Assembly (NCBI GenBank): GCA_965216295.1
Contig: OZ244141.1
Coordinates: 365,299 to 429,298, forward strand
DNA from: Minisyncoccota bacterium
Lineage (GTDB): Bacteria > Patescibacteriota > Minisyncoccia > Phycocordibacterales > JABAAK01
Direction: 5' to 3'
DNA: 64,000 bases
A program made the position numbers and the translations under genes. Below, piece by piece: positions 12,964 through 20,003 of the stretch. Each line of letters begins with the position of its first letter. The stretch's first letter is position 1. Under the pieces are notes generated by a model, which worked only from the letters and a program-made list of their open reading frames with translations, was not told where the DNA came from and did not search any database.

Positions 12964-13440
12964 CTACACATCAAAGGCAAGTTGCATTTCTGTTGTTAAC
13001 ATATGCGTTGCAGCAAATCCAGCGGGTACTTCAAGAACAAAGCGAGCTGGTCTCTCTGGAAGAAATGATGCTGGGTATGTTTCAGGATGTATTTGTTCTG
13101 CGATAGTAATAATCTTTTTTTCTTCTGATAACCAAATAATATCAATACTCAAAAGCATTCCTTTCATCCAAATACCATGCAAACCATTCTCTGGGAAAAC
13201 AAATAACATTCCTTCTCCTTCAGAAAGGTTTGTACGACCAGCTAACCCTTTCGCTCGTTTTTTCGGTGTCTCTACAATGTCTGCTGTAATTGTCGGAATT
13301 TCTGGATTATCAATAAAATTGATACCAGTAATTCGTTGCTTTGGAGTGTTAGTAAATTGGTACTGAATGAAAAGAAGAACAACGAGTACTCCAAGGATCG
13401 CTACCGCAAGGATGCTGAATTGCTTTATAGGAACTCTCAT
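12964..13440 (-). CDS. DUF192 (COG1430) domain protein, membrane-anchored
   Basis: 'GLAGRTNLSEGEGMLFVFPE...HGIWMKGMLLSIDIIWLSEEKKIITI...FVLEVPAGF' matches the DUF192 consensus. Start probably at internal Met (MRVPIKQFSILAV...). Confidence 0.6.
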   Translation of the reverse strand: MRVPIKQFSILAVAILGVLVVLLFIQYQFTNTPKQRITGINFIDNPEIPTITADIVETPKKRAKGLAGRTNLSEGEGMLFVFPENGLHGIWMKGMLLSIDIIWLSEEKKIITIAEQIHPETYPASFLPERPARFVLEVPAGFAATHMLTTEMQLAFDV

Positions 13441-13488
13441 GAATCGTAGTATACCGCGTTGTCTTTGTAGTACTATACCCACACACCT

Positions 13489-13572
13489 GCCGAGGTGGCG
13501 AAATTGGTAGACGCGTTGCGTTCAGAGCGCAATGGGAGTAATCCCGTGGAGGTTCAAGTCCTCTCCTCGGCA
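13489..13572 (+). tRNA. tRNA-Leu (anticodon CAG), class II with long variable arm
   Basis: GCCGAGGTGGCGAAATTGGTAGACGCGTTGCGTTCAGAGCGCAATGGGAGTAATCCCGTGGAGGTTCAAGTCCTCTCCTCGGCA. The acceptor pairs over 7 bp, the anticodon loop is TTCAGAG, and the variable arm is TGGGAGTAATCCCGTG. Confidence 0.85.
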
Positions 13573-13706
13573 CTAAAACAAATTTGATATCAAATAGTAT
13601 TTTTTGTTCTGTTTTCATTAAATTTTTATTATGATTGAATTTAGTCATATTTGCTCTTGATAACCATAGTGTATATAGAGTAAGATATATGTGCAATATA
13701 TAAAGT

Positions 13707-15449
13707 GTGAAAATTAGCATGACAGATATAAATCTACATCAAAAACAAAAAGGAGATAGAAATGAGTGTACTCGTCTAATTCTTGATTCGAGAACAAAAA
13801 ATAAGATAATAGTTGCTGGTCCAGGAACTGGCAAGAGCTTTACATTTCAAGAACTTTTGAAAACTAAAGGTAGAAACGGTCTCGCGCTTACTTTTACCAA
13901 TAATCTGGCACAAGATTTGGAAAAAGATCTTGGAACTTTGGCGAAATCATACACTTTTCACGGCTATTGTAAAAAACTTCTTCACAGAATTTCTGTAGAC
14001 GGTATAGATACTGATTTTCTTTATTATCCGAAGCTTTCTAAATTGATAAAATCGGACGCGATAATTATTGGAAATACTCTTGAAAAATTTGACGAAGCGT
14101 TTCATATACTAGCTAGGGACAGTCGCATTGAATTTTATCTTGAATGTGCAAATTACTATAACGCTGTTGGGCATAATGATGCCGTTTACCGTGTCCTCAA
14201 ATATTTTCAAACAAAAAAAGATTCTCTACCTTCATTCTCTCAAATAGTGGTGGACGAATATCAAGATTTCAATCAGCTCGAAGTTGCATTTATTGATGAA
14301 TTGGCAAAGACTAGCCCGATATTGATTGTTGGAGATGATGATCAAGCAATTTATAATTTTAAAAATGCATCGCCCGATCATATTCGTACTAAGTTCATTC
14401 ATGCAGATTTTGAAAAATTTGAACTACCTTATTGTAGTCGTTGCACAGAAGTAATTATTAGTTCTGTTCACGATGTTATAAAAAAAGCGAAAAGCATTGG
14501 GAAATTACAAAACAGAATTGAGAAAAATTATATTTGCTTTTTGCCCGACAAGGAAACTGATAACATAAAACATCCTCAAATTATTCACGCAAAATGTTCA
14601 GTACAAAATTCTCGTACACCTTATATTTCAAAATTTATAGAGCAGGAAATTAAAAAAATACCACAAATAGAAATTAATTGTGCGCGAGAAAAGGGTTTTC
14701 CGTGTGTTTTAATTGCTGGACCCTCACACTATACAAAACAAGTATATGACTATTTATTGGAAAATAATTTTAAAAATATTGACTATGTTGGCACAAAAAA
14801 ACAAAATGTTGAGTTTTTAGAAGGATATGAAGTTTTAATGCATAATAGGAACTCGAATCTTGGTTGGCGAATAATTTTAGAATGTTCAAGATTGACGGAT
14901 AAAACAGATATTATTAAAATGATGAACGGGTCAAAACAAAAATTAACTGATTTGCTCTCACCGGATTTTAAAGAAAAACATCTTGCTGTTGTTGCACTTC
15001 TCGCAAAACTAAAACTCAACGAAACATTGCTCGAATCAGAAATCCAAAAGTTACTTTCAGAATGTGGAAAACAAAAAATTCAGGAAATCAAGGAATTTCT
15101 AAATATTAATCTAGAAACAGAAAATGATGAGGAAACAATCGAAGACACAAATATTTCAATAAAAATTACAACAATAAGCGGTTCTAAAGGTTTATCAGCA
15201 AATTATGTTTTCCTCATTGGGATGAATAATAATGATTTTCCAAAAAACGATCAAAATCCAACAGACAATGAAATTTGCCAATTTATTGTTGGAATTACAC
15301 GAACAAGAAAAAAATGTTATTTGATATCAAATTTTCGTTTTGCAGGGGCTTCTAGAAAATCAAAATCAGTGTTCATTGATTGGATAAAAACGGAAAAAGT
15401 TGCTGAAGTAAATGTGAGTGCTAGTTTTTTCCAAAACCCTGCTCGTTAA
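13707..15449 (+). CDS. Minimal UvrD/Rep-like superfamily 1 DNA helicase
   Basis: 580 aa with these SF1 motifs: Walker A 'VAGPGTGKSFT', motif Ia 'TFTNNLAQDL', motif II 'VVDEYQDFN', motif III 'VGDDDQAIYNFKNA', motif V 'TISGSKGLSANYVFLIG', motif VI 'IVGITRTRKK'. No accessory nuclease domain is visible. Very AT-rich. It immediately follows tRNA-Leu. Confidence 0.7.
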   Translation: MKISMTDINLHQKQKGDRNECTRLILDSRTKNKIIVAGPGTGKSFTFQELLKTKGRNGLALTFTNNLAQDLEKDLGTLAKSYTFHGYCKKLLHRISVDGIDTDFLYYPKLSKLIKSDAIIIGNTLEKFDEAFHILARDSRIEFYLECANYYNAVGHNDAVYRVLKYFQTKKDSLPSFSQIVVDEYQDFNQLEVAFIDELAKTSPILIVGDDDQAIYNFKNASPDHIRTKFIHADFEKFELPYCSRCTEVIISSVHDVIKKAKSIGKLQNRIEKNYICFLPDKETDNIKHPQIIHAKCSVQNSRTPYISKFIEQEIKKIPQIEINCAREKGFPCVLIAGPSHYTKQVYDYLLENNFKNIDYVGTKKQNVEFLEGYEVLMHNRNSNLGWRIILECSRLTDKTDIIKMMNGSKQKLTDLLSPDFKEKHLAVVALLAKLKLNETLLESEIQKLLSECGKQKIQEIKEFLNINLETENDEETIEDTNISIKITTISGSKGLSANYVFLIGMNNNDFPKNDQNPTDNEICQFIVGITRTRKKCYLISNFRFAGASRKSKSVFIDWIKTEKVAEVNVSASFFQNPAR

Positions 15450-15543
15450 ATTTTTGCTTATTCAAAGTAAATCTTCACGAAGTGTATAACTATAGCACCA
15501 ATAAAACACGTATCGCATTTATTTTGTTATACTACAGCAACCT

Positions 15544-15771
15544 ATGACAGACGCCTCTATAAAAAAATCAAAGTATACATGTTCAAAATGTAAGCACTCA
15601 AAATATGAGTCAGGAGAAATAAGAGCAGCGGGTAGTTTTTGGACAAAAATCTTTAATATTCAAAATAAAAAATTTCTATCAATTTCGTGTAAAAAATGTG
15701 GCCATACAGAATTCTATTCTCAAGATAAAGCAAAAACCGTCGAAAACATTTTTGATTTCCTTATCGGTTAA
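15544..15771 (+). CDS. Zn-ribbon nucleic-acid-binding protein (DUF-type, CxxC...CxxC)
   Basis: 75 aa: 'YTCSKCKHSKYESGE...ISCKKCGHTEFY'. Two CxxC pairs with a C-terminal GHTEFY, typical of small predicted Zn-ribbon proteins. Confidence 0.55.
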   Translation: MTDASIKKSKYTCSKCKHSKYESGEIRAAGSFWTKIFNIQNKKFLSISCKKCGHTEFYSQDKAKTVENIFDFLIG

Positions 15772-15772
15772 G

Positions 15773-17136: not shown

Positions 17137-17227
17137 GGAGGGGTGCCAGAGTGGTTGAATGGGGCGGTTTCGAAAACCGCTGTCATGCTTCATCGTGTGA
17201 CCGAGGGTTCGAATCCCTCCCCCTCCG
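17137..17227 (+). tRNA. tRNA-Ser (anticodon CGA), class II
   Basis: GGAGGGGTGCCAGAGTGGTTGAATGGGGCGGTTTCGAAAACCGCTGTCATGCTTCATCGTGTGACCGAGGGTTCGAATCCCTCCCCCTCCG. Acceptor GGAGGGG/CCCCTCC, anticodon loop TTCGAAA, long variable arm. Confidence 0.85.
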
Positions 17228-17442
17228 CATTGTAACCAAATGAGGGTTCAAAGTTACACTTTGCCTTCTGCATAAGCCGTTTTTCCAAAGAGTTCTTAAC
17301 CTAGATAAATCAATTTTTCTATGTCTTCAGCTTCTTAGTATCAATGTAGCGGTAAATGGTCATAATGTTGACTTGCAGGATGTCTGTTGTGTTTTTGACT
17401 TTATAGAAATCTCTAATATTCATAAGTATATGATACTTTACA

Positions 17443-18918
17443 ATGCTTTACATAGCAAATATATTGGTGAATAATATATATGTGAGATTTTCTAAACACT
17501 TCAAACTGAATAAAACACAAACAGAGCTGGACTTCGTAGATATTCCTCTGAAAACAGATATTCCTCTTTACATAGATCCTCATGTCATTGCGACACGTGA
17601 AGATTTGCTGTCAGTCAAATGCAACAACATCGTTGTCAACTTTTTTCAAACCGTTGTTACAAAAATAAAAAATGGTGATGATGAATTTGCGAAATATATG
17701 CTGAGTAAATTGAGAGAGCCCAACCAAACACATTTTGGACTTTCCAGCAAAGAGCCGAAAGGAAGGGGGGTGGGGGGTAAACAATCAATTGACATATACA
17801 AAAAATTCAAAGAAAGTGAGGCCATAAAAACTGGATTTCTGAAAGATCTTTCAGGGACAGAACTTGTGATTGAAGGTATTGGTAATGACAAGATTTCAGA
17901 TATGACTACGAATATAATAAAAAAAGATCTTATAGAATACACACAAAAACAATGTGACACATACGGCATACCAACAGAAAATGTTCCTGCAGAATTTTAT
18001 TGGAACCCGCAGAACCAAGAGTGGGAAAATGAATATGTTCAAATCCCTGTCTATGAAAACAGGTCCATAATTTTGGTACCCAAAGTGTTTGCGAGATACC
18101 AAATTCAATACAATCACCAACAGTATTACAACAAATTTGTTTTGGAGTATCTTCAGCAAGAGCATATTGATGCTAATTCTTCATTAGTGAAGCTTCTGAA
18201 AAATGGTGAGAAAAAAGTCTATAAAAAAGATTTGAAAAATGAAGAAGAATACAAATTGTCAAAAAAATTTCTATACGAATTCTCCAACGAGCATCCAGAG
18301 GTGCTGGAACAGTATACGAACTCAGTCTCAAGGGATATCAAACCTATTACGGACACCGAGATTGAAATTCGTCATCCTGAACCAAAGAAGATTGATTATT
18401 CGGAGCTGAAAGAAAAACTGCGCGCTATTCCAACAGGCAAGAAAGATGCTAGTAACTACCACAACGTTATGGTGGGTATACTTGAAGCTATATTTTCACC
18501 AAATTTATATGCACCAGCAAAAGAGGAAAAGATACACAATGGGCGAAAATTTATTGATATTATTTTCTTGAATGGTGCAAAAAAAGGGTTTTTTAAATAT
18601 ATTACAAATAACTTCCGTTTCCCTCAAATAATTTGTGAGTGCAAAAATTACACAGAGGACCCTGCAAATCCTGCATTTGACCAGCTTTCTGGTAGATTTT
18701 CCCCTAATAGAGGACAGTTTGGATTTTTGTTAGCACGAACATTTAAGAACAAAAATAAGGCTAAGCAACGCTGTAAAGATACTGCGAATGACCACCGTGG
18801 ATTTATTATTCCTCTGGACGATGCCGACATTATGCAGCTTATAGACTGGAAAAATAAAAATGACTTCCAGAAAATTGATGATTTTCTTACAAATCAATTT
18901 AGAGAACTAATTAACTAG
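17443..18918 (+). CDS. Hypothetical protein with C-terminal Mrr-cat-like PD-(D/E)xK restriction-endonuclease domain and unrecognised ~330-aa N-terminal domain
   Basis: C-terminal 'YHNVMVGILEAIF...GRKFIDIIFLNG...FPQIICECKNY...AFDQLSGRF...GQFGFLLARTFKN' parallels the Mrr_cat pattern (E.V..LL..G...GIDII...ILIQCKRY...V.EL.G....GIIVTT.FT). No motif found in residues 1-330. Strongly AT-rich. First gene after tRNA-Ser. Confidence 0.5.
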   Translation: MLYIANILVNNIYVRFSKHFKLNKTQTELDFVDIPLKTDIPLYIDPHVIATREDLLSVKCNNIVVNFFQTVVTKIKNGDDEFAKYMLSKLREPNQTHFGLSSKEPKGRGVGGKQSIDIYKKFKESEAIKTGFLKDLSGTELVIEGIGNDKISDMTTNIIKKDLIEYTQKQCDTYGIPTENVPAEFYWNPQNQEWENEYVQIPVYENRSIILVPKVFARYQIQYNHQQYYNKFVLEYLQQEHIDANSSLVKLLKNGEKKVYKKDLKNEEEYKLSKKFLYEFSNEHPEVLEQYTNSVSRDIKPITDTEIEIRHPEPKKIDYSELKEKLRAIPTGKKDASNYHNVMVGILEAIFSPNLYAPAKEEKIHNGRKFIDIIFLNGAKKGFFKYITNNFRFPQIICECKNYTEDPANPAFDQLSGRFSPNRGQFGFLLARTFKNKNKAKQRCKDTANDHRGFIIPLDDADIMQLIDWKNKNDFQKIDDFLTNQFRELIN

Positions 18919-19050
18919 ATTGAGTGTTGCCTTCTTCGCTGTTAGACTTGAAATGAAGTAGTAGTTTGAAAAGACAATCCAATGGATTCTAATATCGTCT
19001 TACTACTCTTCGTCAAAAAAGGTGTGTTTTAGTTTATAATATAAATAGAG

Positions 19051-19605
19051 ATGGAATATAACTATGTAAAGAAAAAATGGAGTACTGTTACCTTTATATA
19101 CAGAAAGGGTGATGAGAAATATATAGATAGTCTCAAAAAAGCAATTCAGGTGATAGAAACACTATCACCAAAGTTATACAAAAAGGATGTAAAAAAAATT
19201 AAGTATATATTGATATATAAGTCTAGTAAGTTAAACACATCTCTCGGGTATAAAGAACAAGGTCTGGTAGTGATTCCAATAAAAATGCTTGATAGCAGCT
19301 CATTGCTGTGGAATGCCGGTACCCTTGTACATGAAGCAAGACATATAACCCAACCGAAGAATAAAATGTGGGATTTCTACTGGTGTGAAATGAATGCTAC
19401 AAAAGGTGAGATGGAGTTTTATTCTGACTGTGAAGATAAGTATTACTATGATTTAGTAAATCCAAAAACAAAAAGAAAAAAGTATTTTGAAGAATTGAAA
19501 AAAAGACAGAAAGAAAAGTCCACCAAAAAGAATCCATATGTGCAATTGAAAAACACAGACAAGGATTGTAAAAAAATTGATGAGATAATTAAAAACTTGA
19601 TCTAA
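19051..19605 (+). CDS. Small HExxH (gluzincin-like) putative metallopeptidase/hypothetical protein
   Basis: 184 aa, Lys-rich. 'TLVHEARHITQ' plus a downstream Glu (…WCEMNATKGEMEF) gives HExxH+E spacing typical of minimal zincins. AT-rich. Confidence 0.35.
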   Translation: MEYNYVKKKWSTVTFIYRKGDEKYIDSLKKAIQVIETLSPKLYKKDVKKIKYILIYKSSKLNTSLGYKEQGLVVIPIKMLDSSSLLWNAGTLVHEARHITQPKNKMWDFYWCEMNATKGEMEFYSDCEDKYYYDLVNPKTKRKKYFEELKKRQKEKSTKKNPYVQLKNTDKDCKKIDEIIKNLI

Positions 19606-19658
19606 GCCTAATCTTCCTTTTGCAAATAAAAAAGTATATTCTGATACAATGTACTTAA

Positions 19659-20003
19659 ATGGAAAAAGTAAATATACAAAAAGTTTTAGATGAATTAAAA
19701 GAATTTAGAGATAAAAGAGATTGGAAGCAATTTCATACACTTAAAAATCTTATCTGTGGTTTAAATGTTGAAGCTGGAGAATTGCTAGAACATGTTATAT
19801 GGGAAGATTTAAAAGAACCAACAGATAAACAAAAGAAAGAAGTAGAGAAAGAATTAGCAGATGTTTTCAATTATGTTCTATTAATAGCTGATAAATTAGA
19901 TGTTAATTTAGAAAAGATTTCTATGCAAAAAATTAAAGAAAACGATATTAAATACCCTGTTGAGAAATCAAAAGGAAATAGTAAGAAATATAATGAATTA
20001 TAA
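19659..20003 (+). CDS. MazG-like nucleotide pyrophosphohydrolase (small all-alpha NTP-PPase, YpjD-like)
   Basis: 114 aa: 'LKEFRDKRDWKQFHTLKNLICGLNVEAGELLEHVIWE...EVEKELADVFNYVLLIADKLDVNLEK'. The EAGEL and ELADV metal-binding helices are those of MazG-family NTP-PPases. Confidence 0.65.
   Translation: MEKVNIQKVLDELKEFRDKRDWKQFHTLKNLICGLNVEAGELLEHVIWEDLKEPTDKQKKEVEKELADVFNYVLLIADKLDVNLEKISMQKIKENDIKYPVEKSKGNSKKYNEL

Follow-up and report, generated by a model that had tools for sequence, protein, structure and literature searches.

A stretch of 64,000 nucleotides from the genome of a Minisyncoccota bacterium (contig OZ244141.1, positions 365,299–429,298 of the forward strand; hereafter the window) contains a UvrD-like helicase gene and a small zinc-ribbon gene, side by side and directly downstream of a tRNA-Leu gene. 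Their company raises the question of whether the pair forms an anti-phage or mobile-element module, the remnant of one, or two genes that share no more than an address. The explanation we favor, and hold to be probable on balance, is that positions 13574–15772 are a small, horizontally acquired, low-GC islet with two unrelated genes. One encodes an orphan member of a compact (~555–610 aa) UvrD/Rep-like helicase clade associated with restriction–modification (RM) genes; this clade would be accessory and mobile across bacterial and archaeal phyla, without a fixed partner, and strongly enriched beside RM genes and recombinases of integrative elements. The other is an ordinary zinc ribbon. The descriptive part of this account (an intact, horizontally acquired helicase of superfamily 1A (SF1A), a clade enriched beside RM and integrative-element genes, an orphan at this locus, and an unrelated zinc ribbon) is very likely to be correct. 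The functional parts are graded separately below.

The helicase and its clade

The helicase gene was assigned an ATG start, shared with an identical database protein (P0001), and encodes 576 aa; an alternative GTG start at 13707 gives the 580-aa open reading frame (ORF) 13707–15449. Its principal features are as follows.

13719–15449, + strand: compact UvrD/Rep-like SF1A helicase, 576 aa
13818–13838, + strand: Walker A/motif I, GPGTGKS (residues 34–40); G34, G36, G38, and K39 are invariant in a 25-member alignment and found in 63–64 of 65 members
14253–14267, + strand: motif II, DEYQD (residues 179–183); D179, E180, Q182, and D183 are found in 65 of 65 members
14796–15143, + strand: reduced 2B, a helical insertion (approximately residues 360–475) containing GWR (382–384), from the secondary structure of the model

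The Pfam families UvrD-helicase (77.9 bits against a cut-off of 23), UvrD_C (44 against 25.6), and AAA_19 were all matched over their gathering scores, and SF1A motifs I, Ia, II, III, IV, V, and VI are present with their catalytic residues, confirming the full SF1/UvrD motif set described in an earlier note made from the sequence alone. GPGTGKS, TF(T/I)NN, DEYQD, GDDDQ..Y, R241 of motif IV, K490-G491, and R528 were invariant in alignments of 25 and 65 family members, and the conserved residues comprise G34/G36/G38/K39, T58/F59, D179-E180-Q182-D183, G205-D206-D207-Q209, R241, K490-G491, and R528. Two further signatures are absent from canonical UvrD/PcrA. One is (L)PYCSRC in motif IV (residues 236–242), with Cys239 found in 65 of 65 members; the other is GWR in the 2B-like domain (residues 382–384), with R384 in 65 and W383 in 60 of the 65. 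A four-cysteine zinc site (C239, C242, C273, and C293) was considered and dropped because it is not family-wide: C239 is invariant and C242 is found in 57 of 65 members, but C273 and C293 occur in only about half of the family.

The AlphaFold model of the helicase (pLDDT 89.6) contains an all-helical insertion at approximately residues 360–475. Since this insertion stands exactly at the canonical 2B position, the earlier claim that the 2B insertion is missing was mistaken; 2B is reduced to ~110 aa. Whole-chain superposition of the model on UvrD and Rep gave the four-subdomain 1A/1B/2A/2B fold, in which 1B and 2B are shortened but still present. The chain stops just past motif VI and domain 2A and lacks the UvrD/PcrA tail, in agreement with the earlier statement that a C-terminal accessory domain is lacking. 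Judged by its sequence, the protein appears to be an active enzyme maintained by selection rather than a decaying remnant.

The position of this protein relative to the housekeeping helicases was assessed with NCBIfam equivalog models. The scores in bits were 81 for uvrD (cut-off 1144), 85.9 for PRK11773 (965), 75.5 for pcrA (911), 62.6 for rep (951), 39 for helicase IV (543), and 32 for HelD (419). Because the scores are approximately 10-fold below the cut-offs, the helicase is not assigned to housekeeping UvrD, PcrA, or Rep. A homologue search with a word index returned 1,294 homologous clusters, whose full-length members are almost all 555–612 aa, and scanning one genome per species yielded at least 347 confirmed helicase loci, 80 of which were fetched (loci are designated L and a number below). 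Identity to the window helicase does not follow taxonomy. It is 60% in a Roizmanbacteria metagenome-assembled genome (MAG) and in MAGs labeled 'Gammaproteobacteria', 56% in Thermodesulfobacteriota, 55% in Gracilibacteria, and 51% in Thermotogaceae, but only 33–39% in Saccharibacteria, Paceibacterota, Shapirobacteria, and Moraniibacteriota. Archaeal carriers include ANME-1, other Euryarchaeota, and Micrarchaeota. Because identity disregards taxonomy, the clade appears to have moved between phyla, archaea included. At 10 of the 11 loci of close relatives that were checked, among them all of L001–L007, the helicase gene lies 2–8 GC points below its flanks, and two MAGs each contain two diverged copies (L004/L033 in Thermodesulfobacteriota and L012/L061 in Solirubrobacterales). 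Together, these properties mark the gene as accessory and horizontally transferred; the suspicion that the helicase is not the housekeeping UvrD/PcrA is upheld by the NCBIfam scores and the taxonomy-independent identities. As a separate observation, L012 and L061 share the same neighbor set (BLAST clusters 22–26), suggesting that a cassette was duplicated or acquired twice.

Among 72,556 plasmids and 50,697 phages, the family is all but missing, with only partial matches of <30% identity, and IMG/VR gave one full-length match at 31% identity. Pfam, NCBIfam, PHROGs, and PADLOC v2 contain no dedicated model that recognizes the clade, and the papers on defense islands and embedded genes that were checked gave no description of it. 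What emerges is an unnamed, widely transferred, minimal UvrD-like clade, with at least 347 loci in species representatives and more than 1,200 matching protein clusters.

Gene neighborhoods and a possible role

To describe the company kept by the clade, 910 neighboring ORFs of the 80 helicase loci were clustered by BLAST. There is no fixed partner, as no neighbor cluster occurs in more than 13 of the 80 loci. An RM-type cluster was found no more than 6 kb away in 26 of 80 helicase loci versus 2 of 81 loci of Zn-ribbon genes used as controls, and a recombinase in 12 of 80 versus 3 of 81; the control is crude and biased because the RM queries were drawn from the helicase loci themselves while the controls came from another collection. 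The recurrent clusters are N6-methyltransferases (13 loci), SNF2/ResIII proteins (9), HsdR (5), serine recombinases (8), and tyrosine integrases (6). Families among the immediate neighbors include Eco57I, N6_Mtase, MmeI_Mtase, Methylase_S, ResIII, HSDR_N, Type_ISP_C, XhoI, and GmrSD, together with an nSTAND NTPase, a Schlafen-like helicase, and transposases. In 41 of 75 loci, a gene on the same strand ends no more than 120 nt upstream of the helicase. At the level of the family, the RM linkage expected of an ancillary helicase was found, both in these counts and in operon-like gene orders; at the window locus it was not. The earlier suggestion that stand-alone UvrD-like helicases recur in anti-phage and mobile-element settings also holds at family level, as the clade is found in RM/defense islands and in integrative elements.

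The clade helicase often closes a type I or type IIG RM operon or lies embedded within one. In L083 (66% identity), a helix-turn-helix gene, an HsdR-like gene, and an HsdM+HsdS fusion are followed, after a 13-nt gap, by the helicase; in L084–L086 (59%), the order is DUF3800, M+S fusion, 13-nt gap, and helicase, with no recognizable restriction subunit. Seen as cassettes, L083:544–7188 and L084:5538–9761 (and likewise L085 and L086) are type I-like, with the helicase last and an M+S fusion of ~800 aa. The helicase abuts hsdR in L051, L055, L067, and L073, inside or at the edge of hsd operons. A methyltransferase stands immediately upstream of it in L001, L007, and L015, and a DUF262/HNH GmrSD-like gene, judged by eye from its translation, lies upstream in L002. 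In L003 (60% identity; L003:8467–11707), the gene directly upstream encodes a type II restriction endonuclease (PADLOC REase_II, 3.8e-129) with weaker matches to nicking endonucleases. A nick is the natural loading site of UvrD-type helicases, and these two facts combined suggest a nickase–helicase pairing at this locus. L027 (3314–13000) and L076 share one gene order: an HKD(PLD)-SNF2 protein, a IIG-like methyltransferase, the helicase, a Cas4-like PD-(D/E)XK protein of 248 aa, and a Trypsin_2 protease of ~425 aa. This five-gene cassette may be an undescribed multigene system. In L087–L089 (56%), the helicase belongs to cargo resembling that of an integrative and conjugative element, with a serine recombinase, a RES toxin, DUF4238, a TrwB-like coupling protein, and ArdC.

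The Rep/UvrD fold and this gene company, read by analogy with the UvrD–Cas4 fusions discussed below, allow a tentative mechanism. The helicase would be an ATP-driven 3'-to-5' translocase/helicase on single-stranded DNA. Loading at nicks or ends, it would play an ancillary part beside the resident nuclease or methyltransferase system, of whatever kind, by unwinding foreign DNA or stripping proteins from it. We regard this as possible and clearly less probable than the islet explanation itself. A broader proposal, on which we place still less weight, is that the clade is a portable 'booster' for type I, IIG, II, and IV restriction systems or a stand-alone factor against mobile genetic elements, acting as a solo, single-gene defense in reduced genomes of the Candidate Phyla Radiation (CPR). 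In that capacity it might load at nuclease-made nicks or ends, unwinding the invading DNA and leaving it exposed; alternatively, it might protect the RM system. If such helicases modulate restriction, or act alone on mobile DNA, RM biology would gain an accessory layer, with relevance for defense in ultra-small CPR bacteria.

Several points beyond the bias of the enrichment control weigh against the favored explanation and the role attached to it. Approximately two thirds of the 80 loci have no RM-type gene, as defined by the BLAST clusters, within 6 kb, and some neighbors are plainly housekeeping genes (gyrase, ribonucleotide reductase, and transketolase). No RM gene lies near the window helicase. 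Nick loading, polarity, and cooperation with RM systems are drawn solely from fold and neighborhood. The two genes of the islet may still have been acquired together, because both have ~30% GC and no terminator separates them. A housekeeping-like role in a reduced genome is also conceivable because the PcrA/UvrD content was judged from the window only.

The islet beside tRNA-Leu and competing explanations

The borders and remaining contents of the islet are listed below.

12964–13482, − strand: DUF192 gene (Pfam), native left flank, GC 0.39
13489–13573, + strand: tRNA-Leu (anticodon CAG; ARAGORN; Rfam tRNA, 53.9 bits), left border of the low-GC islet
13574–13718, + strand: AT-rich spacer upstream of the helicase, 145 nt, GC 0.21
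15450–15543, + strand: spacer between the helicase and the Zn-ribbon gene, 94 nt
15544–15771, + strand: 75-aa Zn_ribbon_13 (DUF2082) protein (Pfam), with CxxC pairs C13/C16 and C49/C52
15773–16225, − strand: 150-aa hypothetical membrane protein, right flank, GC 0.38, followed by msrB and msrA

On both sides of the islet lie ordinary chromosomal genes of a Patescibacteria (CPR) bacterium: lepA, murJ, and DUF192 upstream and the membrane protein, msrB, msrA, and a tRNA-Ser downstream. Homologues of the DUF192 gene were found in Paceibacteria, Uhrbacteria, and other Patescibacteria. Against this background, the two islet genes differ in composition: the helicase gene has a GC of 0.316 and the Zn-ribbon gene one of 0.298, versus 0.387 for DUF192, 0.399 for murJ, 0.427 for msrB, and 0.439 for msrA. 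A 2.2-kb stretch starting at 13601 has a GC of 0.309, approximately three standard deviations below the window mean (0.392; standard deviation, 0.028), and within the window equally low values occur only at 17.9–21 kb. Because the tRNA, the ORFs, and the GC deficit were measured as it stated, the earlier note was right in its descriptive part: ARAGORN and Rfam place tRNA-Leu upstream of the helicase, a 75-aa double-CxxC zinc ribbon follows it, and both genes are AT-richer (GC 0.30–0.32) than DUF192, murJ, and msrAB (0.38–0.44). The spacer before the helicase contains a promoter-like site at 13657–13686 (9 of 12 positions matched); such matches are no commoner here than in shuffled sequences. 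No terminator-like hairpin was found between the two genes (15450–15543).

The insertion of the islet is not marked by the usual traits of a tRNA-targeted integrative island, namely an integrase and, at the far border, a directly repeated tRNA 3' end. The search for att-like repeats proposed in the earlier note found none of tRNA-Leu or tRNA-Ser downstream (12–20 nt, up to 4 mismatches), and no integrase, relaxase, or Rep protein is encoded by the window ORFs. Synteny gave no test of presence and absence of the islet, the best non-self match of DUF192 having only 60% identity over 58% of the query, and the one long contig compared had no gene order in common with the window. The earlier remark that no nuclease partner is visible was accurate, as RM genes, nucleases, and integrases are all absent near the helicase. 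Of the three descriptions then offered, a remnant or an incomplete or novel module, 'orphan or incomplete' is fair because there is no nuclease partner here; a novel module with the zinc ribbon is contradicted by the co-occurrence data given below. The window adds one orphan copy of the helicase in a CPR genome, without a testable partner.

The zinc-ribbon protein matched Pfam Zn_ribbon_13 over the full length of the profile (positions 1–63 of 63; 4.8e-25, 87.9 bits against a cut-off of 23), and C13, C16, C49, and C52 are almost invariant among 40 family members. The family has ~425 representatives, which are mostly stand-alone proteins of ~70 aa, and the neighborhoods of these relatives consist of lineage-specific chromosomal genes, among them RapZ, WhiA, and an ABC transporter. 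The nearest relative (67% identity) is from a genome with 24% GC and has another gene context. An AlphaFold2 model of the protein had a pLDDT of 63, a PDB sequence search gave only marginal zinc-ribbon matches (RPB12 and S27ae; E > 0.03), PADLOC gave no match, and a full-text literature search for DUF2082/PF09855 returned no papers. The gene is an ordinary stand-alone Zn_ribbon_13, presumably nucleic-acid-binding, that merely adjoins the helicase. Elsewhere in the family, protein P0253 (251 aa) consists of three tandem Zn_ribbon_13 units, and P0288 (249 aa) is extended at its N terminus by a long stretch that appears thioredoxin/AhpC-like by eye.

The other low-GC region of the window is a second islet at 17137–20003 (GC 0.24–0.35), starting directly after tRNA-Ser (CGA) at 17137–17228. 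A 491-aa ORF (17443–18918) has no Pfam family but matches the PADLOC candidate PDC-M36A (1.1e-55) and phrog_27295 (1.1e-112), and its C-terminal part contains 'ICECKNY', which is PD-(D/E)XK-like by eye. It is followed by a 184-aa ORF (19051–19605) with a weak HExxH-type match and, after that, a MazG-like pyrophosphatase (19659–20003). Neither these three genes nor the 150-aa neighbor occurs in any of the other 87 helicase loci.

The favored explanation was weighed against others for the same locus. The helicase could be cargo or a helper of an integrative, conjugative, or rolling-circle element, serving that element's own replication or transfer, with the present copy left from a decayed element at tRNA-Leu. 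The recombinases within 6 kb in 12 of the 80 loci, the element-like cargo setting of L087–L089, a location beside a tRNA gene, and weak similarity (~30%) of the N-terminal domain to the IncHI transfer helicase TrhI are consistent with this origin; in the window, however, neither an integrase, a relaxase, or a Rep protein nor an att repeat was found, the family is nearly absent from the plasmid and phage collections, and most loci have no transfer genes nearby, making it unlikely. Slightly less likely still is that the protein is the cell's working UvrD/PcrA-type repair and replication enzyme, a streamlined xenologue that replaced the canonical one in a reduced CPR genome. Complete and conserved motifs, the full Rep/UvrD fold, the many family members in Patescibacteria, and inspection of the genome only within the window leave room for such a replacement, which has the equivalog scores and the mobility of the clade to contend with.

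A dedicated two-gene defense or mobile-element module, with the zinc ribbon as a DNA-binding or sensor subunit, is suggested by the arrangement of the genes: they are adjacent, on the same strand, 94 nt apart, similar in GC, and not separated by a terminator-like hairpin. Co-occurrence was examined with a profile hidden Markov model built from 92 Zn_ribbon_13 members and searched against six-frame translations of the 87 other helicase loci, extending up to 10 kb on each side. No clear Zn_ribbon_13 was found in any of the 87. The only profile matches below E = 0.1 were the window's own gene, its homologue in L081 (not a helicase locus), and a 63-aa double-CxxC ORF downstream of the helicases of L077 and L078, distant relatives with 26% identity to that of the window; this ORF is unrelated, with a borderline E of 0.033. 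A tblastn search of the zinc-ribbon protein on the 80 genome helicase loci gave a sole, nonsignificant match (E = 0.47). Conversely, none of 81 loci of Zn_ribbon_13 genes contained a helicase homologue at E ≤ 1e-3. With the nearest zinc-ribbon relative in another context and no PADLOC match for the protein, the conserved pair proposed earlier is effectively refuted by the co-occurrence data, and the probability left to a module is very small. The earlier note had named two outcomes that would speak against its reading, namely grouping of the helicase with housekeeping PcrA/UvrD and a zinc ribbon not co-conserved with it; the second is what was found, because the families do not co-occur, and the first is not. 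Removal of this false lead leaves the helicase as the gene to be explained. Hardly any weight falls on a last alternative, in which the helicase is a Gabija remnant (GajB without GajA) or belongs to a reverse transcriptase (RT)-associated helicase system (DRT). It was raised by PADLOC, whose best matches to the helicase were GajB models (2.2e-28) and RTasHel (1.1e-22). GajA (ABC/OLD ATPase plus TOPRIM) is absent from the window and from the top 25 families of 147 immediate neighbors; GajB was not the closest structure, its likeness being far weaker than that of Rep/UvrD; and no RT domain was found in the neighboring window ORFs or among the top 25 neighbor families reported.

Comparison with known systems

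Relative to UvrD, Rep, and PcrA, the helicase shows 15–19% identity in Foldseek PDB alignments, and the clade is ~100–150 aa shorter, with trimmed 1B and 2B, no C-terminal tail, the YCSRC motif IV, and GWR in 2B. Its distribution also differs from theirs in being accessory, patchy, and island-borne. The zinc-ribbon protein, by comparison with Pfam Zn_ribbon_13/DUF2082, is an ordinary full-length member with nothing divergent. Like Gabija GajB, whose models are its best in PADLOC, the window helicase is a UvrD-like ATPase of a kind found in defense islands; unlike GajB, the clade has no OLD/TOPRIM partner, either here or among its top neighbor families.

Genes embedded in RM operons offer another parallel. 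Independent defense genes, such as PrrC and TgvAB, are often embedded in type I RM operons (PMC11411939; 'guilt by embedding', bioRxiv 10.1101/2024.01.29.577857), and neither paper mentions this helicase. The direct contact with hsdR in L051, L055, L067, and L073 resembles such embedding, from which the window differs in having no hsd operon. UvrD–Cas4 fusions are tied to type III RM and Dcm/Vsr and have a predicted ancillary role of unwinding and cleavage in several defense pathways (Hudaiberdiev et al. 2017, PMC5704561). The present clade differs from them in having no fused nuclease and in its RM partners, among which type I, IIG, II, and IV predominate over type III. It resembles them in being UvrD-like, stand-alone or in nonconserved contexts, and recurrently beside RM genes, and in L027 and L076 a separate Cas4-like gene follows the helicase. 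UvrD-like helicases in defense islands are a known kind of gene; the clade described here is an unnamed one that rides with RM operons and integrative elements across bacteria and archaea.

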